DNA from: an uncultured Lichenihabitans sp.
GTDB lineage: Bacteria > Pseudomonadota > Alphaproteobacteria > Rhizobiales > Beijerinckiaceae
Direction of reading: 5' to 3'
Length of the DNA stretch: 64,000 nt
NCBI GenBank assembly: GCA_964244255.1
Contig: CAXTIC010000016.1
Location: 7,695-71,694, forward strand
This document shows positions 31,150 to 60,576 of this stretch, piece by piece. The notes below the pieces were generated by a model. The model worked only from the letters and a program-made list of their open reading frames with translations. It ran no database searches and was not told the origin of the DNA. A program made the position numbers and the translations under genes. Every line of letters begins with the position of its first letter. Within the stretch, counting starts at the first letter, position 1.

Positions 31150-31225
<76 letters not shown>

Positions 31226-34166: not shown

Positions 34167-34964
34167 TCACGTCCCGAGCCCCGCCATCAAGGCCCTGATC
34201 CGGTCGCCGAAGCGCGCCGCCGAACCGTCGACGACCTCGTTGCGGTCGTAGGCGTCGAAATCGCCCCACGTCCGGGTGAACGGACCGAGCTGCCCGCGCG
34301 CGAGGCGCCGCGCCCAATGGGTTCTCGATCGCGTGAAGTAGTGGTGCACGTTCCACGGCGAGGCGGGTGGCACGACGGCGAGCTTTCCGGGGCTCGCCCA
34401 CACCACCGGCCCACCGTCGGGCAGGACCGTATCGCCGTCGACGACGAAGCGGTGGGCGTTGACGCAGGCCCGCACCGCCCCCGGCCGGACGAGATCCTTG
34501 ACGTGCCGATTGGGCTCGAACTCGAGGGGCGCCCGCCGCGTGAAGCTCTCGATCACGAGACCGGCCGGGGCCTCCGCGTGGCCCGACGAACCGAAGATCC
34601 TCCACGGCACCGCGACCGCCGCGACATCGGGCGACTGGGCGCCGATGAGGGCCCGCACGGAAGCGCCATCCCGCCCCACCAGGAACTCGTCCGCGTCGAG
34701 GAACCCGACCCAGTCGAACTCCGCCTTGAGCTCGGCGCAGGCCGCGAGATACACGGCTTCCTGGGTGCGCGGGCCGGTTCGCCCCGTCGCGAACACGCGG
34801 ATGTCCGCCAAGGGGGCGGCCGACGCGGCACGCCGCACGGTGTCGTCGGTCGATCCATGGTCGATCACGACCACGGCGTCGAACCCGACGAGGTGATGGA
34901 ACAATATCCATTCGAGGATGCCGTCGGCCTCGTCGCGCACCATCGCGCACACCGCGCACTTCAC
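34167..34964 (-). CDS. glycosyltransferase (GT2/GT92-like fold)
   Basis: 265 aa. VCAMVRDEADGILEWILFHHLVGFDAVVVIDHGSTDDT...FLDADEF has the Rossmann-like GT-A signature with a DxD motif. Confidence 0.75.
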   Translation of the reverse strand: MKCAVCAMVRDEADGILEWILFHHLVGFDAVVVIDHGSTDDTVRRAASAAPLADIRVFATGRTGPRTQEAVYLAACAELKAEFDWVGFLDADEFLVGRDGASVRALIGAQSPDVAAVAVPWRIFGSSGHAEAPAGLVIESFTRRAPLEFEPNRHVKDLVRPGAVRACVNAHRFVVDGDTVLPDGGPVVWASPGKLAVVPPASPWNVHHYFTRSRTHWARRLARGQLGPFTRTWGDFDAYDRNEVVDGSAARFGDRIRALMAGLGT

Positions 34965-35034
34965 CGCCGGTCAGACCCGTTCCGGAGCGGGCCGGCGTTT
35001 GCGCGCCAGCCCGCGCGACCGTGGCGCCCCCGCG

Positions 35035-36279
35035 TCATCGGGGATAGGCGTCGCCGGACGCCGGGCCGTGCTTGACCGCGCCGATCAGCTTCAGCGTGTT
35101 CTGCACGCAGACGTTCCGGTCGTAGCGCGCCCTCGCGACCCGGCGCGCCCGTTCCCGCATGGGGGCGAAGGCCTCGCCGTTCCCCAAGACCTCGATGATC
35201 CGCCCCGCCAAGGCGTCCGAGTCGAAGAAGTCCACCAGGATGCCGCTGTCCGCGTCCACGGCCTCGCGGACGGGCGCCGTGTCGGAGGCGATCACGGCAC
35301 ACCCCACCGCCATGGCCTCGATCAGCGACCACGACAGCACGAAGGGGTAGGTCAGGTAGACGTGCGCCGCGGAGACTTGCAGGACTTTCAAATATTCCGC
35401 ATAGGGCACCTTGTCCAGGAAGTGGACGCGATCGACGTCGAGCCTGTCCTTGACCTCCTCGAAGAAGATGCTCTTCCACGAGGCGCCGGCAGGCGGCGGC
35501 GCCCCATAGGAGACGTGGTCGCCGCCGATGATCACGACCTGGGCCTCGCGGCGCTCCTCGAGAACGCGCGGCAGGGAGCGCATGAAGGTGTGGTACCCGC
35601 GCAGGGGCTCGAGGTTGCGGCACACGAACGTGACGACCTCGTCCCCACGCTTGAGGACGCCGCCTTTCCGGAGGCGCACGCTGGCGTCGGGGTCGGGTCT
35701 CGCCTTGTCGACATCGATGCCTTCGTGGCAGACCTTGATCTTGCGCTGGAACTCGACCGGGAAGGTCGAACGCTGCCAGCGCGTGGGCGACAGCCCGATG
35801 TCGCTTTCCGCCAAGGCCAGCAGCGTACACGCGTTTCGCGCCTGTAGGCCGACGATGCCGTCGAGGCTGAGCGAGCCGGCTTCCGGGTCGAAGTTCACGT
35901 CGAGCCCCTCGTGCTTGTAGAAGAACTCGCAATAGGTGACGAGCTTGGAACCGGGGAACAGGCCCCGCAGCGGCAGGTTCTCGCCCCAGCCGCAATGCAC
36001 CATGACGATGTCGGGTACGAAGCCGTTCGCCCGGATCTGCGTCGCGAGATACAGGACCTGCTCGGCCCGGCGGCATTCGAGATCGAAGCGCCGGGCGAAA
36101 GGGTGCGTGTTCGAAACGTCGGGGGGATGGAAGGTATAGCGGTACAGCGCGACCTTCGGCACTGGCCGGGCGCTTTGCGAGCCGATGGCGACCGCTTCGT
36201 TGGCCGGATCCTCGGCGAGCGCGGATGCGAGATTGTGAAACTGCGCCGGGAAGTTCTGATGGACGAACAGGACACGCAT
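35035..36279 (-). CDS. GT4-family (GT-B fold) glycosyltransferase
   Basis: 414 aa. It has an MRVLFVHQNFP N-terminus and a C-terminal sugar-donor motif FVLSWSLIEAMAVGCAVIASD. Confidence 0.85.
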   Translation of the reverse strand: MRVLFVHQNFPAQFHNLASALAEDPANEAVAIGSQSARPVPKVALYRYTFHPPDVSNTHPFARRFDLECRRAEQVLYLATQIRANGFVPDIVMVHCGWGENLPLRGLFPGSKLVTYCEFFYKHEGLDVNFDPEAGSLSLDGIVGLQARNACTLLALAESDIGLSPTRWQRSTFPVEFQRKIKVCHEGIDVDKARPDPDASVRLRKGGVLKRGDEVVTFVCRNLEPLRGYHTFMRSLPRVLEERREAQVVIIGGDHVSYGAPPPAGASWKSIFFEEVKDRLDVDRVHFLDKVPYAEYLKVLQVSAAHVYLTYPFVLSWSLIEAMAVGCAVIASDTAPVREAVDADSGILVDFFDSDALAGRIIEVLGNGEAFAPMRERARRVARARYDRNVCVQNTLKLIGAVKHGPASGDAYPR

Positions 36280-36283
36280 CCGT

Positions 36284-36961
36284 TCATCCGCTCTCGGCCG
36301 CGGTCATGAGCTCTTGCCGCAGCAGGAATCCCGCCGCCGTCGGATCAAGGAACGCCCGCAGGGCGGCCTTGTCGGCGTCAGGCATCAGCAGCAGCGCCCA
36401 AAGGTCGAAGCAACTGCCCGGGCCGACGAGCACTTCCGCGAACCCCGCCTGCAGTGCCACGGTGCCGAGGTGATCGGCGGTGAAGCCGCAATTGTGGGCC
36501 ATGAACACGCTGCCCGAGGCGATCGATCTGCCGTGGCCGAAGAGCATGTCCTGCACCGTGATGGGCCCGGCGGGTGCGTCATAGGCCTTGTACGCGAGGC
36601 CATGGGCGACGAGGAGCTTGCCCACCGCGACGAGGTCCGGGCAGGTGATCAGCGCGAAGCCGTCCGGTTTGAGGATGCGCCGGAACTCCCGCAGCGAAGG
36701 GAGAACCTCGTGGGCATGCAGGTGCTCGATGTTGTGGGACGACCAGATGGCGTCGAAGAACGCGTCGTCGAAGAACGCGCGCATGTCGTTCACCGAGCCG
36801 ACGTGGTCCGGGTCCGTGCGCGGGTCGATATCGAGCGCGACCTCGCGCCACTGGTCCGGCACGAAGCCGTTGAACAGGCGTTTCGGGCTTCGCGGGCCCG
36901 CGCCCGCGTTGAGAACCGTCTTGATCGTCGCGACGGCGTTGGTTCCGGCGGTTGCACTCAT
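36284..36961 (-). CDS. class I SAM-dependent methyltransferase
   Basis: Composite ORF trimmed to ATG 36961 (MSATAGTN). It has motif I VLNAGAGP and a post-I acidic residue, plus RILKPDGFALITCPD. Its start lies 4 nt after the stop of the upstream GT4 gene. Confidence 0.85.
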   Translation of the reverse strand: MSATAGTNAVATIKTVLNAGAGPRSPKRLFNGFVPDQWREVALDIDPRTDPDHVGSVNDMRAFFDDAFFDAIWSSHNIEHLHAHEVLPSLREFRRILKPDGFALITCPDLVAVGKLLVAHGLAYKAYDAPAGPITVQDMLFGHGRSIASGSVFMAHNCGFTADHLGTVALQAGFAEVLVGPGSCFDLWALLLMPDADKAALRAFLDPTAAGFLLRQELMTAAESG

Positions 36962-37040
36962 GGCGGCCCCTGCCAGGTTCGATCTGTTCCCACGCGACCA
37001 ACGCTCCAATCTCGATCCCGATCGTTTCGGGTGTTGCCCG

Positions 37041-39404
37041 CTACGCGCCGGGCGGAACCGGCGTGGCGGTCGGCTGATGTCGCTGGCGCGCCGGCATCGG
37101 GCGCGGCGGCCACGCCAGGCCCGAATACGGCAACCCGTCGAGGGACAGCAACGGGCTGTAGAAAGGGTCGGCGCCCAAGACGTCGCCCCAGCGGTTCCGC
37201 AGGTTCGCGAGTTCCCGCGCGGCTCTCGCCTTGGCGTCGGGCCGGGCGTCCCGCCCCCGGCTCGATGCTTCCCGATGGACCAGCCGGGCGAAGGGCGTGA
37301 AGACGACACGGTAACGGTTGGCGCGCAGCTTGAGGCAATAGTCGACGTCGTTGAAGTTGATCGGAAAGCGGACCGCGTCGAACCCCCCATGCGCGCGAAA
37401 GACGCGCCGGCGCGTCAAAAGGCAAGCCGCCGTCACGGCGCTGCACTCATGCGCGACATCGAGCAGGTCGGCATATCCCGGGTCTCCCTCGATGCGATCC
37501 TGGAACGCTTCGACGGCCGCGAAGTCGGGGCCGAGCGCGATCCCGCCGTGCTGGACCACGCCGCTCGGCCACGACAGCAGCGCCCCGACGGCGCCGACAT
37601 CCGGCTCGGCCGAGCGGCCGAGCATCTCGTTCAGCCATCCGCTCTCGCGAGCCTCGACGTCGTTGTTAAGAAACAGCAGGAAATCGCCGCTGGCGAGGGC
37701 GGCCGCTTCGTTGTTGAGGGCGGCATAGTTGAAATGGCCCTTCGCGGGCAGGACCCGCACGTCCGGGCCGGCGACCCGGTCGAGATAGGCGAGAAGCTCG
37801 GGATCGGAGGAGCCGTTGTCGACGACGATCACCTCGCGGTCGATATCGGCCAACGTGTCGCGGAGCGAGTCGAGGCAGGGTTCGAGCAGATCGAGCCGGT
37901 TCCGGGTCGGGATGATGATGGACACCCGCCCGCGCGGGCGCAACCGCGCGATGCGCACGGCGGGGAGGAGTTTTCCGCGCCCCGCCGTGAGACGCGCCGG
38001 CATGCCCTTCGCCCGCAGGTGGGTGTCGGCCGCCCGGATCAGGGCGGGACTCAGGTCCTGGTGCGCCAGCGCGGGCAGTTGCGCGAGGACTCCCGGGACG
38101 TGGACGGGGAGTTCCTCCTCCCCCGGGGCACGGTCCAGTTGCGCGTTGAACAGGCGGAAAAGGCTGTCCGCCCCCTCGGCGAGCGCCCGCAGCACAATTT
38201 CGCGGCGCATCGCGAAAAAGTACGCGCAATAACCCTGCTCGAGGCAGCGTTCGCAATCGAAGGCGCTGAAGAAGATGGGCCAGGGCTGCCGGCCCACCGT
38301 AGCGGCCACGTCGGCATAGGCGGACATCGCCCGCGGAAACCGGAACAGGGCGTCGTCGAGCGACGCCAGGGCGCCCGCGGCGAGCCGCGTCCCCGCGAGG
38401 GCGAAGACGATCGTGGAACAAACGCCCGCGTCGGCTTCCAGAAATCGGCCGAGGTCGCGCGGGTCGAACGTGCCCGGCGCGCCGCCGTCCGAAAGCGAGG
38501 CCGCGACCCAGTCGCAGCCGACCTGGGCGTCGAGGCTGTCGTGCGACCGCTCGACGTCGGCATGCCCGATCAGGACCGTCGCCACGATGCCGCGGGCCCG
38601 GTCGTCGGGCGTGCCCATCGGGAAGCGCGCGGCCCACTCGGGGAACTGCGCCATCGGCAGCGACTGGGGAAGGAGCCGGTCGATGAAGCGGGCGCGCAGC
38701 GTTTCGGATTCGAGTTCGGCGTGACCGCCGATGAACGCCGCGAGCCCGTCGGGAAAGGCGATCACCAGGCAGGGGCTGCCGTCCACCGTCCCGCCATCGC
38801 TCGCCACGAGGTCGACCTGCCGAACGCGACCGTCGGCGAACCGCTCCGGAAGGTCGAGGGTGAACGAGGGCGTCACGTACCAGGCGTTGCCGTGGTCCAC
38901 GTGGGTCCAGCCCGTCGCTCCGGTCTCGGCCACGACCTCACCGTCGACGAGGGCCTTCACCCGCGTTTTGCCCTCGCGGTCGCCGCGCGCGAGGGCGCCG
39001 GAAAACCGCAGTCCCCCGAGCCAGCGGACGGACGCGGCGGGCTCCGGCGGAGCGGCGGGCGGAAGGCGATCCAACCGGATCGGCACGCCAACGGGCTCGC
39101 CCGTGTTGGCGAGCCGAACGTCCAGGACGGCCGCATTGGCGAACAGGCTCTGGGCGAAGACGAAAACGAAGCCGAAGCAGCCATCGCCCAATCCCGCCGT
39201 CTGCAGGTCGTGGATGTACACGTCCGCACGGGCAAGACCGATCGGCAGCCCGTCCGCCATGAGCTCGACGACGAAACGGGTGTTCGGAGCGGCCGGGTCG
39301 AACACGTGCCCGCGCACCGCGTTGCCGGACGACAGCGACGCCGCGGCACGCAGGCCACGCTCGGGGGCGATCGCGGCGGGGACGGGGGCGGCGTCGTCCC
39401 TCAT
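37041..39404 (-). CDS. large multidomain protein with a C-terminal GT2 glycosyltransferase domain
   Basis: Trimmed to ATG 39404 (MRDDAAPVP), with an ATGA overlap on the upstream stop. It is 787 aa. The GT2 core is VSIIIPTRNRLDLLEPCLDSL...VIVVDNGSSD...LFLNNDVE...QHGG. About 500 N-terminal residues have no domain I can name. Confidence 0.85.
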   Translation of the reverse strand: MRDDAAPVPAAIAPERGLRAAASLSSGNAVRGHVFDPAAPNTRFVVELMADGLPIGLARADVYIHDLQTAGLGDGCFGFVFVFAQSLFANAAVLDVRLANTGEPVGVPIRLDRLPPAAPPEPAASVRWLGGLRFSGALARGDREGKTRVKALVDGEVVAETGATGWTHVDHGNAWYVTPSFTLDLPERFADGRVRQVDLVASDGGTVDGSPCLVIAFPDGLAAFIGGHAELESETLRARFIDRLLPQSLPMAQFPEWAARFPMGTPDDRARGIVATVLIGHADVERSHDSLDAQVGCDWVAASLSDGGAPGTFDPRDLGRFLEADAGVCSTIVFALAGTRLAAGALASLDDALFRFPRAMSAYADVAATVGRQPWPIFFSAFDCERCLEQGYCAYFFAMRREIVLRALAEGADSLFRLFNAQLDRAPGEEELPVHVPGVLAQLPALAHQDLSPALIRAADTHLRAKGMPARLTAGRGKLLPAVRIARLRPRGRVSIIIPTRNRLDLLEPCLDSLRDTLADIDREVIVVDNGSSDPELLAYLDRVAGPDVRVLPAKGHFNYAALNNEAAALASGDFLLFLNNDVEARESGWLNEMLGRSAEPDVGAVGALLSWPSGVVQHGGIALGPDFAAVEAFQDRIEGDPGYADLLDVAHECSAVTAACLLTRRRVFRAHGGFDAVRFPINFNDVDYCLKLRANRYRVVFTPFARLVHREASSRGRDARPDAKARAARELANLRNRWGDVLGADPFYSPLLSLDGLPYSGLAWPPRPMPARQRHQPTATPVPPGA

Positions 39405-41992
39405 GGCGCGCACCAAGCCGCCACGGCCGTCGCCACCTCGTCGTCGCGCGAGCCCGGGTCGAGCGCGAGATCGCCCGGATCCGCTTCGAGCAGGCCGCCC
39501 GACCAATCGAAATAAGCCTTCGCGAGCCCCGTTGCGCGCGCGATCTCGTCCAGGAACCCGAACAGCCGGGCACGATAGGGCAGCAACAGCGCGTCGACCC
39601 CGTACTGTGCGACAATGGCGGGATACTCGTCCTCGGCCACGACCCCGCTGACGAACGTCGCGCCCGACGCCATCAGCCGAAGGTCGTCGAGGGTCTCGCC
39701 GACGACGACGATCGACGCGACGGCCCGGGCGCCGTTCCGCCCGGCGATCCGCAGCAGCAGGCGGTCGACATCCGGGGTGGGGAGCGGCACGAGAACGCCG
39801 ATGCGGGCCTTGATGCGGGCCTCTGGTCGCGCGGCTGGAAGGGCTTTCTGGGCGAGCGGACGCGCCCGCGCGCCCGTCGCGCGCCGGACGCGGGGCAAGG
39901 CGTCGCAACAGGCCCGAGCCATGCGGTCGGCCGCGATCAAGCGCGATCCCGGGACCAGCCCCGGAGGCGCCGGGCCGGCCGACGGCGGCGCGCTCACGCG
40001 GTCGGCGACCTTGAGCGCGTCGCGGTCCGCCACGAGGTCATAGGCGGGCGCCGGGCATTCCAACAGGGTCGCGAGGAGCGCGGAAGGCGTCGCGGCACGC
40101 TCGGCAAGCTCGATCCAGCTCACGTCGAGCGCGCCGAGGTAGTCGCGAAGCGCCGCGCTGCCGTCCGCCGCCAGGGGGAAGGCGAGGGTCTGAGGTGCAT
40201 CGCCCAACGGCGACCTCACCACGACCTCGGTGCCCCGCGTGGCGTCGCGGCGCCACGACACCGCGAGTACGCGCGCTCCGGCCGCGGCGAGTTCCCGCGC
40301 GCGCCGCGCCAACGCCGGCCCGAGGCGCTCGGCACGGCCCACGACGAGACACACCGCTCCGCGCGGGGATAGGCGTCTCTCGATCGCTATACGCGCCTCG
40401 CGAAGCGGATCAGCTTCGAGAAACGTCGCGCAAGCGAGCGTGTAGGCGGGAAAGCGCGCTTCGAGCACGGGGTAATTGCGCGCCACCCATTCCCGTTTCT
40501 CCCCCAGGAACGAACGCCCGCTCGCGTGAGCCACGAACAGGCCGGTCGCGGCCACATTGCGGAAACCCTTTTCCCGGGCGCGCAGGCAGAACTCCACGTC
40601 CTCGTAATAGCCGCGACCGTAAGCCAGGCTCAGCGGCCCGACGGCGTCGAGACAGGCGCGCGTGACGTAGAGGCAGAAGCCGATGCCGTTGACGAGGTCG
40701 ACCGCCCCGTATCCGTTGGCCGCGAAGGCGGCGGCGTCGACGGCGGCCGCGCGGGCGGGGTCGGGAAAAGGGTTGGGGACGTTGGGGCGCGGGAAGCTCG
40801 TGAACTGGCTGTCGTTCGAGAAAGGCAACACCGTGCCGACGCCGCCGACACCGCCGTGGGCCACGGCGGTGAGGCGGTCGATCGCACCGGCGGGAAGGAT
40901 GGCATCGGAATTGAGCAACAGCACGTCGCCCGTGGGACAGAGCGCGAGCGCCTTGTTCACCGAAGCGGCAAAGCCGTGGTTGACGCGGTTGTAGAGCAGA
41001 TCGGCACCTTCGGCACGGCAATAACGTTCGACGTGATCGGCGATGCGCGCGTCAGGCGTATCGTCGTTCACCACGACGACGCGCAGCGCGCATGCGGTGA
41101 GCTGGGCCTTCAAGGCGTCCAGGCAAGCCCGCGTCGCTTCGAAATCCCCGTAGACCGGAACGATCACGTTGACGACGGTGGCCGCCGCACCGCCCCGTAA
41201 GGCGGGCCGTTCCCCTTCCGCCGGCGCCCGGTCGTCAGGGCCGGGCGGGCGTGGGTCCTCCGAATCCGACGGCGGGAACCACCCGTCGGGCGACCCGCCG
41301 CGGCGGGTTCCGGCCTCGGTTTGCGGATAAAGACCCAGCGACGTAGCCGAAGCGCCGTCGACCCGCGCCTCGAGCGTCAAAGCGAGCGCGGCCGGATACC
41401 GGCGCTCGAACCTGGCCGCACCACCCAGGATCGAAGACAGCGGGTGATCCGGATCGCGCACGACGTCGAACCGATCGACGCGCGCTTCGGAGCGGACGGA
41501 GAGTTCGACGGCGCCGCTTCCCTTCCAGGCGACCCAGCCCGAGACGCGCGGGCCGTTTCTCGACGCGTGCAAGACGATGCCCTCGCCGGATCGACCGAGA
41601 TGGTCGATCGCGGCACGCAGGCTGTCGTCGGGCGCGCGGGGGTTTCCCACGAGCGCGCGCGCGGCCGCGAGTCGCGTGGCGATGCTCGCTCCGCGTTCCA
41701 GAGCGGCGCGGTTGACGAAGGGATCGTCCGCATCCAGGTCGAGGGCCGTTTCAAGGTCCCGCGCGGCGGCATCCCCGTGGCCGAGCGCGTGCAACGCCAG
41801 CGCGCGCAGCAGATGGTGCCAGGCCCGGGCCACGATCGGCAAGCGGCAACGACGGTCGGCGAACGCGAAGCCCGCGACGAAGTCGCCTTCGCTTAAGCAA
41901 CGCCTCGACGCGGTCGCGAGCGCGCCCGCGTGGCCATCCTTCGTGAACAACGCGCCGTCCCACGTCGCACGCGGGCCGATGTCTCCTGCCAT
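39401..41992 (-). CDS. large multidomain protein with a central GT2 glycosyltransferase domain
   Basis: 863 aa. The central GT2 core is VNVIVPVYGDFEATRACLDAL...VVVVNDDTPD...LLLNSDA...YYEDVEF. The N-terminal ~280 aa and C-terminal ~340 aa are unassigned. Confidence 0.85.
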   Translation of the reverse strand: MAGDIGPRATWDGALFTKDGHAGALATASRRCLSEGDFVAGFAFADRRCRLPIVARAWHHLLRALALHALGHGDAAARDLETALDLDADDPFVNRAALERGASIATRLAAARALVGNPRAPDDSLRAAIDHLGRSGEGIVLHASRNGPRVSGWVAWKGSGAVELSVRSEARVDRFDVVRDPDHPLSSILGGAARFERRYPAALALTLEARVDGASATSLGLYPQTEAGTRRGGSPDGWFPPSDSEDPRPPGPDDRAPAEGERPALRGGAAATVVNVIVPVYGDFEATRACLDALKAQLTACALRVVVVNDDTPDARIADHVERYCRAEGADLLYNRVNHGFAASVNKALALCPTGDVLLLNSDAILPAGAIDRLTAVAHGGVGGVGTVLPFSNDSQFTSFPRPNVPNPFPDPARAAAVDAAAFAANGYGAVDLVNGIGFCLYVTRACLDAVGPLSLAYGRGYYEDVEFCLRAREKGFRNVAATGLFVAHASGRSFLGEKREWVARNYPVLEARFPAYTLACATFLEADPLREARIAIERRLSPRGAVCLVVGRAERLGPALARRARELAAAGARVLAVSWRRDATRGTEVVVRSPLGDAPQTLAFPLAADGSAALRDYLGALDVSWIELAERAATPSALLATLLECPAPAYDLVADRDALKVADRVSAPPSAGPAPPGLVPGSRLIAADRMARACCDALPRVRRATGARARPLAQKALPAARPEARIKARIGVLVPLPTPDVDRLLLRIAGRNGARAVASIVVVGETLDDLRLMASGATFVSGVVAEDEYPAIVAQYGVDALLLPYRARLFGFLDEIARATGLAKAYFDWSGGLLEADPGDLALDPGSRDDEVATAVAAWCAP

Positions 41993-42126
41993 CCGACCTC
42001 AACGCCTGCCGCCGACGCACCGAAGCGAATCGCGGGCCCTGCCGCGAATCCTGCGCCCCGCCCGGCCGGCGACCAAACATGGTCCCAAGCCGCCTCGAAG
42101 GAAGTCCCCGCGGTGGGACGCGGAGG

Positions 42127-43212: not shown

Positions 43213-43242
43213 ATAACACCTCTTTTGGCCGAATCTGGGCGG

Positions 43243-44217
43243 TCATGATCGCGCTGCCCGAAATACGCGCACACGCGGAGCTTTTCCAAGGATCGAAGCG
43301 TCGTCCGAGCTCGTCGACGCGGCTTTCACGTGGAGCCGGAGTCCGACGAGGGCATCGAACCCGCCGGGACCGACGAGATCGACCGATCGCCCGCTCTGAA
43401 CCACGACCGGAGAACCCAGGAACAGGGCCTCGCCATGGATGGCGAACCGGTCGGCGGCGCGACCGACAAGGCGAAAGCGCAAGCCGGTCAGAGGCCTGGC
43501 CTGCCCGCGCGTACCCGCGAAGGCACCGGAGCCAAGCCAGGGCGACCAGCGGCCGTCCCTGCCGTTCGCGAATTGGGTCTCGATGTCGAGGTCGCCGTTG
43601 AGGATGCGAAGCTCGACCCCTTCGATGGGTGCCGGCTGGCTCGGGCCGCCCGCCCAATCGCCGCCCGCGATCAGCACGTCGCCGCGTCGCGCGATATGGG
43701 CGATGAAATCGACCTCGGCGGTGGGCTCGCTCGATGACCGCGCGGCGCCAGCCTCGGGCCCAACGGCCGGCAGGAGCCGCACCGCCGCCGTCCGAGGCTG
43801 ATCCGCCGCGTGCGGCTCGTCATCCCACGGTGCCCGCGCGAAGGGCGCATGCGACGGCGCCGCGACCCGCTCTCCCGTGGCCAGAAGCTCGAGATTGAAC
43901 TGCGCGTCGAGACTTCCGAACGTTTCGCGCGGCTGGATGGTGATGTCCAGGGTGCCGGCACCGTTCGACACGACGACGAGCGCGCACCCGGGCGCGGACA
44001 GCTCGCCCTGCGCGCAACCGGGGGCCGGCACCAGCACCACGCTTCCCGCACTCGCGCGAACCCTCGCCATCGGCGCACCCCGCCCCGCATTGCTCGAAAC
44101 GTAGCGGAGCGCGTAGAGCCCCTGTTCGACGGCGCAGGTTGATGTGCTTGAGGAGCTGGACACGATCGCTGAAATTTCCCGACGCTCGGATGGAACTTCC
44201 TCGCAGCGGCTGGTCAT
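43243..44217 (-). CDS. hypothetical protein
   Basis: ORF 43243..44319 trimmed to ATG 44217, because the upstream 34 codons are AT-rich promoter-like DNA. It is about 324 aa. Its stop lies 30 nt before the RTX-like gene start. No family recognised. Confidence 0.55.
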   Translation of the reverse strand: MTSRCEEVPSERREISAIVSSSSSTSTCAVEQGLYALRYVSSNAGRGAPMARVRASAGSVVLVPAPGCAQGELSAPGCALVVVSNGAGTLDITIQPRETFGSLDAQFNLELLATGERVAAPSHAPFARAPWDDEPHAADQPRTAAVRLLPAVGPEAGAARSSSEPTAEVDFIAHIARRGDVLIAGGDWAGGPSQPAPIEGVELRILNGDLDIETQFANGRDGRWSPWLGSGAFAGTRGQARPLTGLRFRLVGRAADRFAIHGEALFLGSPVVVQSGRSVDLVGPGGFDALVGLRLHVKAASTSSDDASILGKAPRVRVFRAARS

Positions 44218-44444
44218 ACCAACCGAAGGTTCCAAGCGCAATGCGAAACGCCGGGCAGGTTGCACATTATTGCGGCAATGCGGCTTTTTCTTATCTTTTT
44301 GTAAACGAATCTTGTTCACGCGCTAGGAGAAGGGCCACGCGCCCGGCGGCGGAACGCGCCGGCTTTGCGCGAGCGGTTCGCCCCGCGGAGCCGCCGGGAC
44401 TTGACAGCGTGGGGCGAAGCCGCCCGCGCACCGGGACCGCGGCG

Positions 44445-46472
44445 CTAGCGCTGGGGGGAGGGGAGCTGCCCGATCCGCGACACTTCCCGCTCCGCCGCCT
44501 CGATGCGGGCCAGCACGGGCGCGGTCTTCGCGGTATCCCGCCGGGCCGCCGCCTCGCCCCAGAAGCGCGAACGGCCGAGGTCGCGACCGACGACGAGACC
44601 TTCGCGGTAGAACTCCGCGAGCGTCAGTTGCGCCTCGATCATGCCCTGCTCGCCTGCCTTCTCGTACCAATGCAACGCCGCCGGCGTATTCTGCTCGGCA
44701 CCTTGGCCCTTGAACAGCATCACGGCCAGGTTGAACTGCGCCACCATGTGGCCGGCCCGCGCCGCCCGCTCGTACCAGGCGATGGCGGTGCCCAGGTCCT
44801 TCGGGACGCCCTGCCCCAAACAGTGCATGACGGCGAGCTGGAACTGCGCCGCCGGATAGTCCGCCTCGGCCGCCTTCCGGAACCAGGCGGCGGCCGCGAC
44901 GGGATCGGCCGACGAGACCCGGCCCTCGAGGAGGAGACCGCCCATGATCATCGTGGCCTCGAGGTCGCCGGCCTCGGCGGCGACCCGATACCATTGCACC
45001 GCGAGCCCCTTGTTCTCGTCGGAGGGATCGCGCTTGAGGTAGATCTGGCCGAGCTGCTTGAGGGCCGGCGCGTAGCCGGTCTCGGCGGCCTGGCGCAGCA
45101 ATTCCTCGGAGCGCGTCGGATCGTGGTCGGTGCCGTGGCCGGAGAGATGCAACATCGCGAGCGTCGTCTTCGCCTCGGCGTCGCCCGCGTCCGCCGCGCT
45201 TTGCAGCAAGCCTTGGGCCTTGGCGAGGTCCACGGGTATGCCGCGGCCCGCGAGAGCCATCAGCCCGAGCTTGGACTGGGCCGCCGCGATGCCTTGCTCG
45301 GCCGCCTTGTCGAACCAACGCGCCGCTGCCGCGAAATCCTGCGCGGCCCCGATCCCGTCGTGGTAGAACACCGCGATGTTGAACGCCGCCGTCGCGTGCC
45401 CCTGCTCGGCCGCGCGCAGGAACCATTTGGCGGCCTCCCGCATCACACGCGGCACGCCCTCGCCCCGCGCGTGCAGCGTTCCCAGCATGAACTGCGCCCG
45501 CGCATCGCCGGCTTCGGCGGCACGGCGGTACCATGCCGCGGCCTCGTTGAGGTTCGGGGCCACGCCCTGCCCGCGGCCGTAGAATTCCGCCAGGCTGACG
45601 ATGGCCGGGAGGTGGCCGGCCTTCGCGGCCGCGCGGAGGCGCGTTTCCACCACCAAAGGGTCCTTGGTCAGCCCCGCGGCACCCCGCCCATGCATCAGGG
45701 CGAGCTGGTGGAGGGCCGCCGCGACCTTGTTGCCTTCGGCCGCTTCCTCGAGAAGCCGGGCTGCCTCGATCTCGCCCTCGGCGCCGCGTCCGAGCAGGAT
45801 CATGGCGATCTCGTATTTGGCGACGGGCTCCCCCTGATCGGCCGCCCTGCGGTACCATCGTTCGGCGACGAGGGCGTCCCGCGGAACGCCGAGGCCGTAA
45901 TTGTGGATGGCGCCGAGCCCGAGTTCGGCGCGCGCGACGCCCCGTTCCGCCGATTTCTCGTACCAGGACCGCGCGCTAGCGGGATCCCGCTCACAGCCGA
46001 CGCCCTGGATGAAGAACTGCCCCAGCATCGCCATGGCGCCGCCATGCCCGTTGCGCGCGGCGGCCACCGCCCAATGATGGGCGCGCGACATGTCCTTGGC
46101 GACGCTCACGCCGGCCGGAAACAGCAACAAGCGGTTTCGTTCCGCCGCGTCGGGGTTTTCTTCGGTCGCGGCGGCGTACCACCGCGCCGTCGGGGTCATC
46201 AGGTGCTCGTCGCCGGTGAGATAGAGCAGGCACAACTGGTATTGAGCTTCGGTGTGGCCGAGCGCGGCCGCCTTCTCGAACCAGCTCACCGCCTGCGGCA
46301 TGTTGTAGACGACGCCCTGCCCGCGCAGGTAGAGTTCGCCGAGTTTGAACTGCGCCTCGGCGTCGTCGAATAGGCTCGCGCGCTTCCAAAGGCGGTAGGC
46401 CTTGCCGAAGTCCTCCAAAGCGAAGGCTACGTTGCCGCGCTCGCGCAGGGCGACTTTTTTCCGTCCGAACAT
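44445..46472 (-). CDS. Sel1-like repeat (SLR/TPR-family) protein
   Basis: 675 aa with about 16 units of the pattern A.......G.G...D...A..W(Y/F)..AA..G. There is no signal peptide or TM segment. Confidence 0.9.
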   Translation of the reverse strand: MFGRKKVALRERGNVAFALEDFGKAYRLWKRASLFDDAEAQFKLGELYLRGQGVVYNMPQAVSWFEKAAALGHTEAQYQLCLLYLTGDEHLMTPTARWYAAATEENPDAAERNRLLLFPAGVSVAKDMSRAHHWAVAAARNGHGGAMAMLGQFFIQGVGCERDPASARSWYEKSAERGVARAELGLGAIHNYGLGVPRDALVAERWYRRAADQGEPVAKYEIAMILLGRGAEGEIEAARLLEEAAEGNKVAAALHQLALMHGRGAAGLTKDPLVVETRLRAAAKAGHLPAIVSLAEFYGRGQGVAPNLNEAAAWYRRAAEAGDARAQFMLGTLHARGEGVPRVMREAAKWFLRAAEQGHATAAFNIAVFYHDGIGAAQDFAAAARWFDKAAEQGIAAAQSKLGLMALAGRGIPVDLAKAQGLLQSAADAGDAEAKTTLAMLHLSGHGTDHDPTRSEELLRQAAETGYAPALKQLGQIYLKRDPSDENKGLAVQWYRVAAEAGDLEATMIMGGLLLEGRVSSADPVAAAAWFRKAAEADYPAAQFQLAVMHCLGQGVPKDLGTAIAWYERAARAGHMVAQFNLAVMLFKGQGAEQNTPAALHWYEKAGEQGMIEAQLTLAEFYREGLVVGRDLGRSRFWGEAAARRDTAKTAPVLARIEAAEREVSRIGQLPSPQR

Positions 46473-46509
46473 GACGGGTGGGTGCTCCGAAATGGCGATG
46501 CGGGACCGC

Positions 46510-47880
46510 TCACCGCTCCCGCATGGACTCGCCGACCGCGCCGATGGCGCCCCCTATCACGTATGAGAAGAGGGACCGCGTTCCGACGTTGACGTCGGCG
46601 TGGAGCGTCATGCCCGGGATCAGGCGGAAGTGCTCGGGGACGCCGGTGAAATGGAACGCGTCGATCTTGACCCGCGCCTTGTAATAGGCCTCGACGGGCT
46701 TGCCGTCATCGGAGGTCGTGAACGAGCCTTCGCTGATCCATCGCAGCGTGCCTTCCGCCATGCCGTGCTCGGTCGAATTGAAGGCATCGATCTTGATCAG
46801 GCAATGATCGCCGGGACGCACGAACCCGATGTCGCTCGACCTCAGATGCACCTCGGCCTCCATCGGCGCGCGGGTCGGGACGAGCGTCATCAGTTCGTCC
46901 CCCGCCTTCAGCACCGACCCGACCGACAGTTTCGACATGCTCAGTACCACCGACGGCTCGGGCGCGACGAGCCGCACCAGGTCCTGGTGCTTGGTGGCCT
47001 TCTTGAGACTGCCCACCGCCGCGTCGCGTTCGTTCTCAGCCTTGACGAGGTCTTGGCTGCTTTGCGTGAACCATTGCTGGACGAACGCCTCCTTGTCGGC
47101 CGAAATCGACGACAATTGATGCTGCGACTCGATCAGGCTGTTGTGTCCGTTCTCCATCGTGCGCAGCATTTCGAGCCGGGCGTCATTGGCCTGAAGCAGG
47201 TTGAGCAGGCTGCTCGACCCGCTCTTGTAAAGCGTGTCGCGCATGTTCTCGATCTGATGCGAGATTTTCTCGCGCGCCTCGTAGCGTTCGGCGTCGGCCC
47301 GCAGCTTGGCGAGGGTGGCCTCCGTCGTTTTCATCTTTTCGTCGAAGCTGCGAAGCTGCGCCGCGAACTCGCTCGCGCGCTGATCGAACAGGGCCTTCTG
47401 CAGGCCGATGTAGGGAACCTCCTCGACCGGCACGTCGCCCGGAAACACGAGCGGGACCTTGTTCTGCTCGGCCTTGAGCCGCGTGATCTGCGCGTCGAGC
47501 CCGGCGATCTGCCGCGTGAGCTGCCCCACGTCGGCGGCCGCGAAGGTCGAGTCGAGGGTCGCCAGGAGCTGACCCTTGTCGACCTGCTGCCCTTCCTTGA
47601 CGTCGATGCTCTTGATGATCGACGGATCGAGCGCCTGGAACGTGCTGACCGATTCGGTCGACACGACCTTGCCTTGCTGACTGCCGACCATGCGGTCCAC
47701 CCGCACGAACGGCGTCATCGCGATGAGGGAGAAGAACAACCCAGCGAGCAGGATCACCGCCCATTGGGCGGTGGCGGGCTCGGGTGCTTCCCGGATGGCG
47801 TCGGACTCCGACTGCCATTGCCGGATGGTCTGGAGCGCGTTGGCGGAGCTAGGCGACACTCTGGGAACCTCGGTAGGCAA
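46510..47880 (-). CDS. HlyD-family type I secretion membrane fusion protein
   Basis: 456 aa with one N-terminal TM helix (WAVILLAGLFFSLIAMTPFV), long coiled-coil segments and a C-terminal beta-barrel motif (PGMTLHADVNVGTRSLFSY). Confidence 0.92.
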   Translation of the reverse strand: MPTEVPRVSPSSANALQTIRQWQSESDAIREAPEPATAQWAVILLAGLFFSLIAMTPFVRVDRMVGSQQGKVVSTESVSTFQALDPSIIKSIDVKEGQQVDKGQLLATLDSTFAAADVGQLTRQIAGLDAQITRLKAEQNKVPLVFPGDVPVEEVPYIGLQKALFDQRASEFAAQLRSFDEKMKTTEATLAKLRADAERYEAREKISHQIENMRDTLYKSGSSSLLNLLQANDARLEMLRTMENGHNSLIESQHQLSSISADKEAFVQQWFTQSSQDLVKAENERDAAVGSLKKATKHQDLVRLVAPEPSVVLSMSKLSVGSVLKAGDELMTLVPTRAPMEAEVHLRSSDIGFVRPGDHCLIKIDAFNSTEHGMAEGTLRWISEGSFTTSDDGKPVEAYYKARVKIDAFHFTGVPEHFRLIPGMTLHADVNVGTRSLFSYVIGGAIGAVGESMRER

Positions 47881-50089
47881 GTTTCGGGCGCGCGGGCTGG
47901 CTCGTCGTCATGTGCTGATTCTGCTGATGCCACAACCCGCTGTAGATGTCGCAACGCTCCAGCAGTTCCTCGTGCTTGCCGATATCGTGGACCTCGCCCT
48001 GATCGAGCACAAGGATCGCGTCGGCGTTCACGAGCGACGACAAGCGGTGTGAGATGACGATCATCGTGCGCCCGGCCGCGATCCGCTGCAGGTTGGCGTT
48101 GACGATCGCCTCGCTTTCCGCGTCGAGCGCGCTGGTGGCCTCGTCGAGGATCAGGATGCGCGGGTTGGTGATCAGTGCGCGCGCGATGGCGAGCCGCTGA
48201 CGCTGGCCGCCCGACAGGTTCGGCGACCCCTCGTAGATGAACGTTTCGTAGCCGCGCGGCAGCTTATCGATGAACTCCTCGGCTCCGGCCAGCCGGGCGG
48301 CGAAAACCATCTCCTCGAACGAGGCGTCGCTCTTGGCCGCCGTGATGTTCTCTCGAATCGTGCCGCTGAACAGGAAGTTTTCCTGGAGCACCACCCCGAG
48401 GCTCGACCTGAGATAGTCGATATCGTATTCGCGCACGTCGATCCCGTCGACCTTGATCAGCCCCTGGTAATCAGAATGCAAGCGCTGCAACAGCCGCGTC
48501 ACGGTCGTCTTTCCCGAACCGCTGCGGCCCATGACGCCCAGTGTCGTCCCTTTCGGGATCTCGAACGTGACCGAACGCAACGCCGGCTGCAGAGCGCCTT
48601 TATACTTGAATCGCACCTTGGAGAATTCGACATAACCGTTGACGGGCTTGCGCACACCATGCCCGGTCCGCCCTTCTTCGGGCGGCAGGTTGACGAGGCT
48701 CGCCACGACGCCGACCGCCAACCGCGCTTCGTCGATCTGCTGCAACATGTGCGACATCTGGATCAATGGTGCCGATATTCGTTGAGTCAAAAGAATAAAT
48801 ACAAACAATGTTCCAACATAGATAGGGTCGTTGCTGGTGATCGCGAAGTACACGCCCAACCCGTAGGTGCCACTCACCATCAAGCGTTCGAGCGGCGCCA
48901 CCACGGTCTGCAGAACGTTGCTGACTTTCGACGCTTCCATCTGAGCGAGCGCGACGCGTGAGGTGAGCACGTCCCATTCATGGCGCTGCTTGGAATCGAG
49001 TGCCAGGGACTTGATCGTTCGGATGCCGTGGATGTTCTGCGACAGGAACGCCCCCCGATTCGCTTCCGCGGTCTCGACCTTGCTCGACCGTACCCTGTAG
49101 ATCGGAAGCATGATCGCGATCCACCCGAAGATCAGAGCGCACATCACCAGCACGAATGTCGTAAGTACCAAACTTAAGTAAAACATCACAGGCAGAAAAA
49201 ACAGCAATACGCCGCTGTCCAGCACAGTACCAAACAATTGCCCCATGAGGAACGAGCGAATGCGGCTGAGCTGGCCCATCTTATACGTGATAAGACCAAC
49301 GGGCGTGCTTTCGAAAAAGTCCACGGGCAGATTGAGCACCTTGTCGAACATGTAGGTCGACAGCTTGATGTCCATGCGCGTCGTGAGGCGCGACAACAGG
49401 AAGCGGCGCAGGGCACCGAACGCCGTCTCGAAGGAGATCAGGATCAGCATTCCGAGACAAAGCACCACGAAGGTGTTTATGGCGTGAGTCGGAAGCACGC
49501 GTTCCGCCAACAAGCGCATGAACATGATCGGCGCCAGGGCCAGCAGGCTCATGCTCAGAGCGCTGATCGCGATGCCGCGCGCGAGCCGCCGCTCGCGCAC
49601 GATCAAACCCAGGATGAAGGCAGGACCGAACGGCTGGTCCTCGTCCGAGACTGCGTAGTCGCGCTGGATCAACACGATCTCGCCGGTCCAAACCTCGGCG
49701 AGCTGGTTATGATCGAGCACCAGGAGCGCGTCGGGGTCGGCGCTCGGGTCCTGCAGGACGACCCGCGGCAGGTTGTGGTCCACCTCGGTGCGCAACAGCA
49801 CCATGCAGGAGCCGTTCTTGAAGCGTATGATCGCCGGCAGCGCCTTCTTGAGTTGCGCCAGGCCGTTGACGTCAAGCCGGAGCGCCCTGCCCTTGAGGCC
49901 GGCCCCTTCGGCGCAGCGCAGCAGTTGCGCCGTCGTCACCTCGTCCCCGGACAAGCGGTTGTCGCGAACCAGTTGCGAGGCGCTCAGGTGAAACCCATGC
50001 CGCCGGGCGATGACGACCAGGCATTGCAGGCCGGACGGTGCGGCGTCGTCGGTCGACGCACCGGCTTGCACCAAGGTCGAACTCTTCAT
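47849..50089 (-). CDS. type I secretion ABC transporter (HlyB-like) with an N-terminal C39-like domain
   Basis: Trimmed to ATG 50089 (MKSSTLVQ). A ~130-aa C39-like domain comes first, and in my by-eye alignment the catalytic Cys position reads Ser (PSGLQC versus DCG). A six-helix TMD follows. The NBD has Walker A GRSGSGKTT, signature LSGGQRQR and Walker B ILILDEATS. There is a 32-nt overlap with hlyD. Confidence 0.92.
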   Translation of the reverse strand: MKSSTLVQAGASTDDAAPSGLQCLVVIARRHGFHLSASQLVRDNRLSGDEVTTAQLLRCAEGAGLKGRALRLDVNGLAQLKKALPAIIRFKNGSCMVLLRTEVDHNLPRVVLQDPSADPDALLVLDHNQLAEVWTGEIVLIQRDYAVSDEDQPFGPAFILGLIVRERRLARGIAISALSMSLLALAPIMFMRLLAERVLPTHAINTFVVLCLGMLILISFETAFGALRRFLLSRLTTRMDIKLSTYMFDKVLNLPVDFFESTPVGLITYKMGQLSRIRSFLMGQLFGTVLDSGVLLFFLPVMFYLSLVLTTFVLVMCALIFGWIAIMLPIYRVRSSKVETAEANRGAFLSQNIHGIRTIKSLALDSKQRHEWDVLTSRVALAQMEASKVSNVLQTVVAPLERLMVSGTYGLGVYFAITSNDPIYVGTLFVFILLTQRISAPLIQMSHMLQQIDEARLAVGVVASLVNLPPEEGRTGHGVRKPVNGYVEFSKVRFKYKGALQPALRSVTFEIPKGTTLGVMGRSGSGKTTVTRLLQRLHSDYQGLIKVDGIDVREYDIDYLRSSLGVVLQENFLFSGTIRENITAAKSDASFEEMVFAARLAGAEEFIDKLPRGYETFIYEGSPNLSGGQRQRLAIARALITNPRILILDEATSALDAESEAIVNANLQRIAAGRTMIVISHRLSSLVNADAILVLDQGEVHDIGKHEELLERCDIYSGLWHQQNQHMTTSQPARPKLAYRGSQSVA

Positions 50090-50411
50090 CCCGTTTTCCC
50101 GGCCCCGCAAAGCTCACCGGCGGGCATCGGAGCGCCGGATCGCCAGGGCGTGATACCGCAAAAGCGGCTTTTTCGCAAGCTTGGCAATAGGGTGTTCTAA
50201 GGCGCACGTGGTTTCGTAAATGACGAAGCCCGTCCATCGCCGCGCACGGAAGTATCCACGGATCATTGTAAAAGACTTACCTCAATGCGGAAATCCGCGC
50301 ATCGGCGGCGGCGTCCGGCGGGTTGCGATTCGCCCCCGGCCGCGCTAGCGACGCACGGGGCGTGAGCCGGCCCGCGGCCGGCCGCGAATACTTACGCGGG
50401 ACGGCCAAGCG

Positions 50412-58751: not shown

Positions 58752-58755
58752 ACCT

Positions 58756-59988: not shown

Positions 59989-60054
59989 ACTATGCCCCCG
60001 TTCGCCTCACCGTCCCGGCTTTCCTTTGAAATACGGTGAACCCCGTCGTCTGCG

Positions 60055-60185
60055 AGGAATGAAAGTCGATAAAGGTAAATTTACAATGCGAGTAATTCAT
60101 AGTTAATTATGTGTTAAATCATAGACAGAAACATCACTGTCGTCCATTAAGGTGAATGTCTGAAATTATCACTAAAACGTTGCAT
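60055..60185. promoter_or_regulatory. strongly AT-rich divergent control region with direct repeats AAWTCATAG spaced 22 bp apart
   Basis: ...gaaagtcgataaaggtaaatttacaatgcgagtAATTCATAGttaattatgtgttAAATCATAGacagaaac... It lies between the ACAD-like gene (minus) and the ACP gene (plus) and contrasts sharply with the GC-rich flanks. Confidence 0.4.
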
Positions 60186-60268
60186 TGCCGGAGCGGTCGC
60201 GCGAAGGAAACGTAGCAATCGGACCTGCGAACCATGCTGCGCGGGGCCGCCTTACCGCAGGTCCTTCG

Positions 60269-60553: not shown

Positions 60554-60576
60554 CCGCGCTGAAAGTCCCGCCCGCC

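Follow-up and report, generated by a model that had tools for sequence, protein, structure and literature searches.

Ten consecutive minus-strand genes at positions 34167-50089 of a 64,000-nucleotide (nt) stretch of an uncultured Lichenihabitans sp., referred to here as the window, combine glycosyltransferases (GTs) and a methyltransferase with a HlyB/HlyD-type type I secretion system (T1SS), a Sel1-repeat protein, and a small RTX-like protein. Sequence comparisons suggest that this block may well represent a variant of an alphaproteobacterial, T1SS-coupled glycan pathway of the exopolysaccharide II (EPS II, galactoglucan) type. Given its conservation across Hyphomicrobiales and its partial match to the exp (EPS II) genes of Sinorhizobium meliloti, the module most likely makes a secreted sugar polymer and not a sugar-coated toxin. 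The association of the ten genes is far beyond chance, as it recurs in dozens of other species. Judged by sequence similarity, the exp cluster, which makes a free polysaccharide, is its nearest experimentally characterized relative. The block comprises the following genes:

47849-50089, minus strand: HlyB, a HlyB-type T1SS ATP-binding cassette (ABC) exporter with a predicted non-catalytic N-terminal C39-like domain (CLD; Pfam Peptidase_C39, ABC_membrane, and ABC_tran)
46510-47880, minus strand: HlyD, a HlyD-family T1SS membrane-fusion protein (MFP; TIGR01843)
44445-46472, minus strand: Sel1-repeat protein with about ten repeats (Pfam Sel1, 332 bits)
43243-44217, minus strand: hyp, a protein with two all-beta domains and a ChW-like C-terminal half (weak Pfam ChW match)
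42127-43212, minus strand: small RTX-like Ca-binding protein, the presumed T1SS cargo (HemolysinCabind, 27 bits)
39401-41992, minus strand: GT2A, a multidomain glycosyltransferase of 863 amino acids (aa) (Pfam GT2, residues 274-496)
37041-39404, minus strand: GT2B, a 787-aa GT2 with an N-terminal extension of 490 aa (Pfam GT2, residues 495-740)
36284-36862, minus strand: small class I S-adenosylmethionine-dependent methyltransferase (Methyltransf_11)
35035-36279, minus strand: ExpC/WgcA-like glycosyltransferase GT4 (Pfam Glyco_trans_4_3 and Glycos_transf_1)
34167-34964, minus strand: small GT2, an accessory member (Pfam Glyco_tranf_2_4)

One genome per GTDB species was scanned with an alignment of GT2A, which yielded 482 related stretches, and the best 80 of these 482 loci were analyzed for gene content by tblastn, clustering, and hidden Markov models (HMMs) with flanks of ±10 kb. 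Nearly all GT2A-anchored loci are labelled Hyphomicrobiales or unclassified alphaproteobacteria, and they include Rhodoblastus, Bradyrhizobium, Nitrobacter, Rhodopseudomonas, Rhodoplanes, Methylobacterium, Mesorhizobium, and Lichenihabitans. The core of the module consists of hyp, GT2A, and GT2B, in this order, together with GT4, with hyp being present in 74, GT2B in 73, and GT4 in 72 of 83 loci. GT2B adjoins GT2A in most of the loci that carry it, and hyp, the gene most tightly linked to GT2A, is usually located immediately upstream of the latter. Members of the RTX-like family are encoded in 44 and orthologs of the methyltransferase (49-63% identity) in 30 of the 83 loci. An adjacent pair of ABC and MFP genes was found in at least 22 of them, which is an undercount because several loci stop at contig edges. 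Homologs of the small GT2 (33-36% identity) are located 8-10 kb from GT2B in Bradyrhizobium/Nitrobacter-type loci. Genes for dTDP-rhamnose synthesis (rml) occur in 23-26 related loci and directly adjoin the module in more than 20, in one of which (L001 in our numbering) they lie directly upstream of the T1SS, and pyruvyl transferases occur in three, among them a locus on a plasmid of B. ottawaense.

The three contexts that were examined first, a Methylobacteriaceae metagenome-assembled genome, Methylocapsa sp. S129, and one further genome, repeat the arrangement of the block. Identities in these contexts amount to 61-68% for HlyB, 51-66% for HlyD, 41-49% for the Sel1 protein, 37-39% for GT2A, 41-46% for GT2B, 53-55% for GT4, 30-41% for hyp, and 25-32% for the RTX-like protein. 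Across the related loci, two unrelated T1SS lineages adjoin the RTX-like gene and the GT module. The first is the trio of CLD-containing ABC exporter, HlyD, and Sel1 protein (56-68% identity), in which the Sel1 gene directly follows the hlyD gene in all relatives bearing the trio (41-49% identity). The second is a PrtD-type ABC/MFP pair, 24-26% identical to HlyB, with two SapC proteins. This arrangement is found in Rhodoplanes-type loci (L051, L058, L069, L070, and L082, e.g., L082:17830-19484), where the RTX-like gene is followed by the PrtD-type ABC/MFP genes and two paralogous SapC-family genes. SapC genes were found only in such PrtD-type relatives.

Loci of the Bradyrhizobium and Nitrobacter type had appeared to be devoid of T1SS and cargo, which was overturned by extending the locus on the B. 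ottawaense plasmid pBoOM27 (L084). Here, the parts are spread over about 47 kb, and the T1SS and the RTX-like gene lie beyond the ±10-kb flanks. All parts except the small GT2 are present, namely GT4, hyp, GT2A, GT2B, rfbBCDA, Sel1, HlyD, ABC, methyltransferase, and RTX-like protein. The genes for Sel1, HlyD, ABC, methyltransferase, and the RTX-like member (HMM E 5e-68) are located 14-22 kb downstream of GT2B, and the methyltransferase gene, whose product is 51% identical to that of the block, sits between the cargo gene and the ABC gene. In three further loci (L001, L022, and L044) the T1SS trio and the GT genes occur together with no RTX-like gene in range. The co-occurrence in several gene orders, with two T1SS lineages, and over about 47 kb of a plasmid strongly supports the proposal of the initial annotation that a single system is formed by the GT/methyltransferase set together with the RTX-like cargo, Sel1 protein, and T1SS. 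The opposite picture, in which homologous GT blocks always sit with Wzm/Wzt-type genes and never with a T1SS, is not what the related loci present. The T1SS recurs, and families of Wzm/Wzt, Wzx/Wzy, PCP/OPX, and priming GTs are not among the 40 most frequent gene clusters as identified by Pfam (for a subset) or by inspection of representative sequences, a few small clusters being left unidentified.

Additional genes accompany individual loci. A giant fusion protein of about 1300 aa is encoded beside the Sel1 gene in L003 (L003:19837-22547), where it consists of WbsX, GT4, and GT2 parts according to precomputed Pfam assignments. A fusion of similar size beside the Sel1 gene of pBoOM27 (L084:32319-36281) is annotated as GH99-like; its GT4 and GT2 parts were recognized by sequence reading, its N-terminus carries 'FDxxFY..xYPDV' repeats, and a pyruvyl transferase is encoded close by. 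In chromosomal loci of Bradyrhizobium (L031-L057), four gene clusters are found near GT4 (c18, ParA-like, c23, and c26). By sequence reading only, they encode a transglutaminase-like cysteine proteinase-like protein with a signal peptide (LapG-like), a ParA-like ATPase, a GT-C-like protein with multiple transmembrane (TM) segments, and a UbiA-like prenyltransferase.

For the comparison with EPS II biosynthesis, the exp cluster (L085) was taken from positions 950-1000 kb of pSymB of S. meliloti 1021, and gene names were assigned by position and published descriptions. The cluster also goes by the name wg, with wgdAB standing for expD1D2, wgeA-H for expE1-8, wgcA for expC, and wga for expA, which includes rml-like genes. 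On one strand, it encodes ExpD1 (ABC), ExpD2 (MFP), ExpE1, ExpE2, ExpE3, and ExpE4 in this order, with ExpC and rmlACBD nearby. Both clusters have the same strand order of ABC, MFP, RTX-like protein, N-terminally extended GT2, methyltransferase-like protein, and GT4, into which the window block inserts the Sel1 protein, hyp, and a second GT2. GT4 is 42% identical to ExpC over 406 of 414 aa (E 2e-98; family HMM E 6e-119). The HMM of the RTX-like family matches ExpE1 with E 4e-34 over HMM positions 150-361 only, which comprise the repeats (pairwise 37% identity over 108 aa), and ExpE1 lacks the conserved N-terminal segment of the family. GT2B and the 754-aa GT2 ExpE2 share the C-terminal placement of the catalytic domain (GT2B HMM E 9e-26); in hhalign, this match (probability 99%, E 3e-18) is confined to the GT2 domain, with no detectable relationship between the N-terminal extensions. 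A neighboring open reading frame (ORF) of the exp cluster shares a short beta-domain motif with the N-terminus of GT2B. The similarity between the methyltransferase and ExpE3 is weak (E 1e-5 over 58 aa), and the hyp profile had no hhalign match among all exp-cluster ORFs. With regard to the pump, the window ABC protein is 26% identical to ExpD1, which is of the PrtD type without CLD, and HlyD is 24% identical to ExpD2; the PrtD-type ABC proteins of the Rhodoplanes-type relatives are about 35-36% identical to ExpD1.

The two clusters also agree in what accompanies the GTs. As in the window block, the T1SS is the sole exporter of the exp cluster, in which a Pfam scan found neither Wzx, Wzy, Wzm, Wzt, PCP, or OPX nor a priming GT, and, like exp, many loci related to that of the window carry rml genes. 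The Ca-binding protein ExpE1 (WgeA) is secreted via ExpD1/ExpD2 together with TolC, and loss of its secretion abolishes galactoglucan (PMC1403797; PMC2912261; PMC3233446). The combination of GTs, a T1SS, and a small RTX-like protein in the absence of Wzx/Wzy is an arrangement already known from exp, which the initial annotation overlooked.

The block had been described as lacking a polyprenyl-phosphate priming transferase, Wzx/Wzy, Wzm/Wzt, OPX, and nucleotide-sugar genes. This holds for the block and for the other window ORFs scanned with Pfam, which excluded three stretches (~18.3-19.9, 23.7-24.6, and 55.5-57.0 kb): neither a priming GT, flippase, polymerase, ABC-2, or OPX gene nor a nucleotide-sugar gene was detected. 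Pfam domains of a self-sufficient Wzx/Wzy, ABC-2, or synthase-dependent locus, including PCP/OPX, are absent from the ten genes, and the GTs of the block have no credible multi-TM region and so bear no signature of a membrane-embedded synthase. An OEP/TolC domain was not found among the same scanned window ORFs, either. As tolC is commonly unlinked to T1SS genes, this does not speak against a working T1SS.

That the only exporter of the block is a protein-type T1SS, as had been claimed, is borne out by both pump components. The best NCBIfam model for HlyB is TIGR01846 (type_I_sec_HlyB), which is aligned over its full length with 548 bits, below the cutoff of 725 bits, and the protein shows the expected set of hydrophobic segments. 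Its Peptidase_C39 domain (Pfam) is located at residues 19-143. The position of the catalytic Cys is occupied by Ser ('PSGL') and the His is missing; 14 aligned homologs also have Ser or Thr at this position and no His. Because the catalytic Cys is replaced and the His is absent, the domain is judged to be non-catalytic and would be of the kind found in RTX exporters instead of a bacteriocin peptidase. HlyD reaches 292 bits with TIGR01843, above the cutoff of 209 bits, and has a single N-terminal TM segment (residues 35-62). In the E. coli HlyBD-TolC system, the ABC protein likewise has a degenerate C39-like domain and is paired with a HlyD adaptor, and the cargo is acidic, Cys-free, signal-less, and rich in Gly/Asp repeats. 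Differing from that system, the window has no HlyC acyltransferase or toxin domain, its cargo is small and barely canonical, and there is the additional Sel1 gene. No hydrophobic segment was detected in the Sel1 protein, which has neither a signal peptide nor a TM segment, or in hyp, the RTX-like protein, and GT2A. Its conserved position flags the Sel1 protein as a putative, previously unnoticed third partner of a T1SS subfamily. In the literature searched, no earlier description of the whole module or of a Sel1 partner for a T1SS subfamily was found, and searches that combined Sel1, T1SS, and GT or T1SS, GT, and Bradyrhizobium gave nothing specific.

The RTX-like protein consists of 361 aa (35.3 kDa, pI 4.3) with 18% Gly, 12% Thr, six NxS/T sequons, and no Cys. 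With regard to its designation as an RTX-like cargo, HemolysinCabind passes its cutoff (27 vs 23 bits), but only two strict GGxGxD units are present and the remaining repeats are degenerate. The protein has no hydrophobic N-terminus and no signal peptide, and its C-terminus is conserved across the family; it is presumably exported by the dedicated T1SS. Homology searches with this protein returned only the protein itself and generic RTX repeats, which gave it the appearance of an orphan; the family surfaced through synteny and an HMM built from neighboring ORFs. Its members range from 256 to 611 aa and share a 'MATYxL' N-terminus and a 'TxITFxdGQxL..V.I.F.Dg' C-terminus. An N-terminal segment of about 60 aa is conserved and is distinct from the repeats and the C-terminal signal.

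For hyp, an AlphaFold2 (AF2) model (pLDDT 82) predicts two all-beta domains with a disordered linker between them, and a Foldseek comparison of this model with the PDB gave no match at E<=0.001. The hyp family comprises 353 cluster representatives at E<=1e-30, the alignment of which reveals invariant H..RGD, W..GP, and IEG motifs and a conserved C-terminal RVRVFR tail. For the hyp region (43243-44319), the deposited annotation (P0139, 275 aa) has the gene begin at an internal ATG. The conserved sequence 'GLYxLRY...' runs at least 25 codons further upstream, so that the true start of hyp is located at or before 44217.

GT2A has more than 650 full-length homologs, and a PDB sequence search with this protein found nothing. 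Its AF2 model (pLDDT 86) consists of a TPR-like helical domain, a beta-sandwich, a GT-A domain, and two Rossmann-like domains. In Foldseek, this model retrieved generic GT-A folds only, in which polypeptide GalNAc-transferases are mixed with polysaccharide synthases; the type of acceptor, protein or glycan, can therefore not be read from the fold. For GT2B, the PDB sequence search returned marginal matches of the GT2 domain only, to chondroitin synthase, GmaR (E 0.003), and GpgS. The GmaR match, which points to flagellin GTs of the FlmG/GmaR type, is the sole hint at a dedicated glycosylation system for secreted proteins. Among dedicated protein glycosylation families, domains of GT41 (HMW1C) or heptosyltransferases (TibC/BAHT) were not found in the block with Pfam. 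The active C39 peptidase of a glycocin system of the SunS and SunT type is absent as well, as the C39 domain of the block appears to be non-catalytic.

In the proposed EPS II-type pathway, the cytoplasmic, soluble enzymes GT2A, GT2B, ExpC-like GT4, and small GT2 would assemble an extracellular or surface glycan from dTDP-activated sugars, with rhamnose or dTDP-glucose being suggested by the relatives. The small methyltransferase may modify this glycan, possibly by capping the chain end. The CLD-type ABC exporter and HlyD, together with an unlinked TolC, would secrete the 35-kDa RTX-like protein, which presumably folds outside the cell in a Ca2+-dependent manner. By analogy with ExpE1 and ExpD1/ExpD2, production or release of the polymer would depend on the secreted protein and its pump. 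Cytoplasmic adaptors coupling the GT complex, the cargo, or both to the pump could be provided by the Sel1 protein, which lacks a signal peptide, and by the all-beta protein hyp.

Several points weigh against this reading. Only GT4 is a clear ortholog of an exp protein, ExpC, and the remaining enzymes are similar at the level of domains. The exp cluster has no counterpart of hyp, the Sel1 protein, or the non-catalytic parts of GT2A, and the ABC exporter of the window is of the CLD type vs the PrtD type of ExpD1. Among the window ORFs scanned, there are no genes for rml, pyruvyl transferases, DUF6212 (ExpA1), or a WggR-like MarR regulator. Modules of the TPR-like and Sel1 kinds are likewise typical of protein-directed enzymes. 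In addition, the export mechanism of EPS II itself is unsettled, and the analogy carries this gap along.

A viable, though somewhat unlikely, alternative follows the logic of S-layer anchoring, in which the GT/methyltransferase module builds a surface glycan (e.g., a methylated O-antigen of the rhamnan type) whose priming and export depend on genes located elsewhere, while the secreted RTX-like protein docks onto it via its conserved N-terminal domain. This would resemble RsaA of Caulobacter, which is anchored to smooth lipopolysaccharide and requires O-antigen genes for attachment (PMC3034196). Both the RsaA/RsaDE system and the SapA/sapCDEF system of Campylobacter fetus share with the window a Ca-binding repeat protein and a dedicated T1SS gene beside genes for glycan synthesis. 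The separate N-terminal segment of the RTX-like family fits an anchor, rml and methyltransferase genes are typical of O-antigen loci, and the GT-C-like and UbiA-like proteins of some Bradyrhizobium loci point in the same direction. Some support is added by the two SapC-family proteins that accompany the pump in Rhodoplanes-type loci as in the Sap system, since from its Pfam description we take this family to belong to the S-layer secretion operon sapCDEF of C. fetus. The window itself, however, combines a CLD-containing ABC exporter with a Sel1 partner and has no SapC among its ten genes, whereas the ABC proteins of S-layer T1SSs have no N-terminal domain and, in the Sap system, SapC is the accessory protein. 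With 35 kDa compared to about 100 kDa for RsaA, and with 256-611 aa across its family, the cargo is small for an S-layer protein. Furthermore, no conserved Wzm/Wzt, Wzx/Wzy, WaaL, or priming GT is encoded beside the module in about 80 loci, nor does the window block have linked genes for O-antigen export and ligation or evidence of a lattice. The closest characterized relative, exp, yields a released exopolysaccharide and not an O-antigen.

Modification of the cargo itself, as favored by the initial annotation, is unlikely. It would require that GT2A, GT2B, GT4, the methyltransferase, or several of them glycosylate or methylate the RTX-like protein in the cytoplasm prior to export by the T1SS, with the Sel1 protein and TPR-like domains keeping the protein unfolded. 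That the genes belong together is upheld by their co-occurrence, but the GT domains give generic GT-A matches only and provide no specific support for such a modification; beyond this fold, the enzymes do not resemble known bacterial protein glycosyltransferases (GmaR at E 0.003; mixed ppGalNAc-T matches). Consistent with a protein acceptor are the TPR-like N-terminal domain of GT2A and the cytoplasmic Sel1 protein as protein-binding modules, the Thr content and sequons of the cargo, the position of the methyltransferase gene between the cargo and ABC genes on pBoOM27, and the failure to find lipid-carrier machinery in any of the loci. We agree with the initial annotation that glycosylation of RTX cargo of a T1SS is not an established paradigm. 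A precedent is provided by the cyanobacterial proteins SwmA and oscillin, glycosylated RTX-type surface proteins (PMC3034196), which are likened to the window cargo by description, are much larger, and have glycosylation enzymes that are undefined in this source. Four GTs and rml, together with the pyruvyl transferases and WbsX-type giant GTs of relatives, are better suited for polymer synthesis, the homologous exp genes make a free polysaccharide, and L001, L022, and L044 have the trio and the GTs with no potential RTX-like acceptor in range. A bulky glycan would also have to pass the narrow T1SS channel together with the unfolded chain.

It is rather improbable that the ABC-HlyD-Sel1 trio exports a glycan or glycolipid and not a protein, in which case the RTX-like protein would be a second substrate or an extracellular helper. 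The same three loci, with the trio beside GT2A/GT2B and rml, can be cited in its favor; the similar exception of pBoOM27 dissolved when the RTX-like gene was found just past the fetched flank, and the others may be alike. A function in polymerization has been proposed for wgdA/wgdB (PMC3233446), and the HlyB/HlyD-type genes atrB/atrD, which are located among polysaccharide GTs and, as in relatives of the window locus, near rmlACBD in sphingan clusters (gellan, welan, and WL gum), influence polymer yield and have been suggested to take part in polysaccharide export (PMC9197254). Scaffolds of the Sel1/TPR type, e.g., AlgK, function in the export of polysaccharides, and the AlgK model weakly matches; the Sel1 protein of the block, however, is signal-less and hence no periplasmic scaffold like AlgK. 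Sphingan loci also carry a priming GT, a Wzx/Wzy-type polymerase and flippase, and PCP/OPX export, and we know of no RTX-like cargo, Sel1, or hyp-type gene in these clusters. For the pump of the window, the score of HlyD above the T1SS family cutoff and the full-length HlyB type of the ABC protein with its C39-like domain, a domain that in HlyB binds unfolded RTX substrate, argue for protein export.

We likewise attach a low probability to a reading in which the RTX-like protein acts as the covalent primer or carrier of the polymer. The soluble GTs would build the chain on this protein in the cytoplasm, the Sel1 protein and hyp would hold the conjugate in an export-competent state, and the T1SS would thread out a proteoglycan. 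If true, protein priming would explain why lipid carrier, flippase, and ABC-2 exporter are dispensable in EPS II-type loci and why galactoglucan is lost when ExpE1 is not secreted. It would constitute a further, protein-primed route of bacterial polysaccharide export, of which a glycosylated T1SS cargo would be the first step. It is very improbable that a GT cassette of the O-antigen type and a T1SS operon unrelated to it adjoin each other by chance. Gaps of 227 and 134 nt divide the block into at least two transcription units, and the T1SS genes have a G+C content of 0.61-0.65 compared to about 0.70, both of which could be expected from such a juxtaposition. This explanation is largely refuted because the association recurs across many genera, with varying gene order and with either of two T1SS lineages, and an 18-nt motif is common to the regions upstream of the T1SS and the hyp-RTX units. 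In our view, the EPS II-type pathway remains the reading to which the conserved module and the exp genes point.

The two copies of this motif (GAAAAAGCCGCWTTKSCG) are located as follows:

44273-44290, minus strand: copy 1 of the shared 18-nt motif, GAAAAAGCCGCATTGCCG, 56-73 nt upstream of hyp; candidate common operator/promoter element
50157-50174, minus strand: copy 2 of the shared 18-nt motif, GAAAAAGCCGCTTTTGCG, 68-85 nt upstream of hlyB; candidate common operator/promoter element

The pattern has two matches in the window vs 0.04 expected, a statistic that is circular, as the pattern was built from the same two sites, and is indicative only. The motif is possibly a common operator or promoter element of the T1SS and hyp-RTX units. 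In its placement, it resembles the WggR palindromes that precede expD1 and expE1 in S. meliloti. A scan for sigma-70 promoters found none. Terminator-like matches number 18 vs 11.4 ± 3.3 in shuffled sequences, about two standard deviations above, and nearly all of them are located inside coding sequences.

All ten coding sequences of the array that had been described are present with their domains, as assigned by Pfam and NCBIfam scans, and have a coding-type G+C content at third codon positions (GC3) of 0.80-0.90 according to a GC3-based ORF filter. The G+C content of the whole window is about 70%, and among public sequencing runs its DNA is contained only in a lichen metagenome, in the form of contigs. 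The tight packing is also read in the sequence, with a 32-nt overlap of hlyB and hlyD, a 30-nt spacer between hyp and the RTX-like gene that contains an AGAGG ribosome-binding site, an ATGA overlap of GT2A and GT2B, and a 4-nt spacer between the methyltransferase and GT4 genes (TGA-ACGG-ATG). The statement that there are only two larger gaps has to be corrected, as a third sizeable gap of 178 nt (36863-37040) separates GT2B and the methyltransferase gene; GT4 and the small GT2 are 70 nt apart. The methyltransferase start at 36862 is backed by homologs. A frame at 34961-36076 in the ORF list was dropped as Arg/Pro/Gly-rich and non-coding, and the GT4 frame at 35035-36279 was taken.

The block is flanked by housekeeping genes, with aroA and cmk on one side and yaiI and pyrF on the other side. 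A 719-aa protein encoded at 6513-8672 on the minus strand, in a stretch of lower G+C content, has no obvious signal peptide. It has PD40/TolB-like repeats of the beta-propeller type, as judged from its sequence, a Big_13/Big_6 Ig-like domain, and a C-terminal segment resembling T1SS targets (...DTITDF..G.D.L.LS...DFKFHA). It may be a second T1SS substrate, encoded 35 kb from the pump. At 57789-62142, a class II aminoacyl-tRNA-synthetase-like protein adjoins an acyl-CoA-dehydrogenase-like protein, followed further on by a 521-aa protein that contains a GINT1_N-type domain and gives a weak GH43 match; these genes may form a separate small cluster for glycan or lipid modification. The window also encodes a complete kdpABC-kdpDE potassium-uptake operon (9203-17207), an IS630-type helix-turn-helix transposase fragment (62577-63389), and tRNA-Ala genes at 413-488 and 31150-31225.

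Synthesis and export of galactoglucan without classical machinery in S. meliloti have been a puzzle since about 2000 (Moreira et al. 2000, as cited in PMC1403797), as has the strict requirement of this polymer for a T1SS-secreted RTX-like protein. The present comparison places the exp arrangement within a much larger uncharacterized family across Hyphomicrobiales, which includes lichen, soil, methylotroph, phototroph, nitrifier, and rhizobial lineages. Its core consists of hyp, two giant GT2s, and an ExpC-like GT4, to which the RTX-like protein and a T1SS are usually added. Either CLD-ABC/HlyD/Sel1 or PrtD-type/SapC proteins, as well as rml genes, a methyltransferase, and pyruvyl transferases, appear as interchangeable accessories. 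The family provides comparative leverage and several culturable hosts for studying the mechanism, among them Rhodoblastus acidophilus DSM 137, Rhodopseudomonas palustris 2.1.18, Methylocapsa sp. S129, and, with the plasmid copy, B. ottawaense OM27. A methylated surface glycan of the rhamnose type, if this is the product, may be relevant to the association with lichens and plants.

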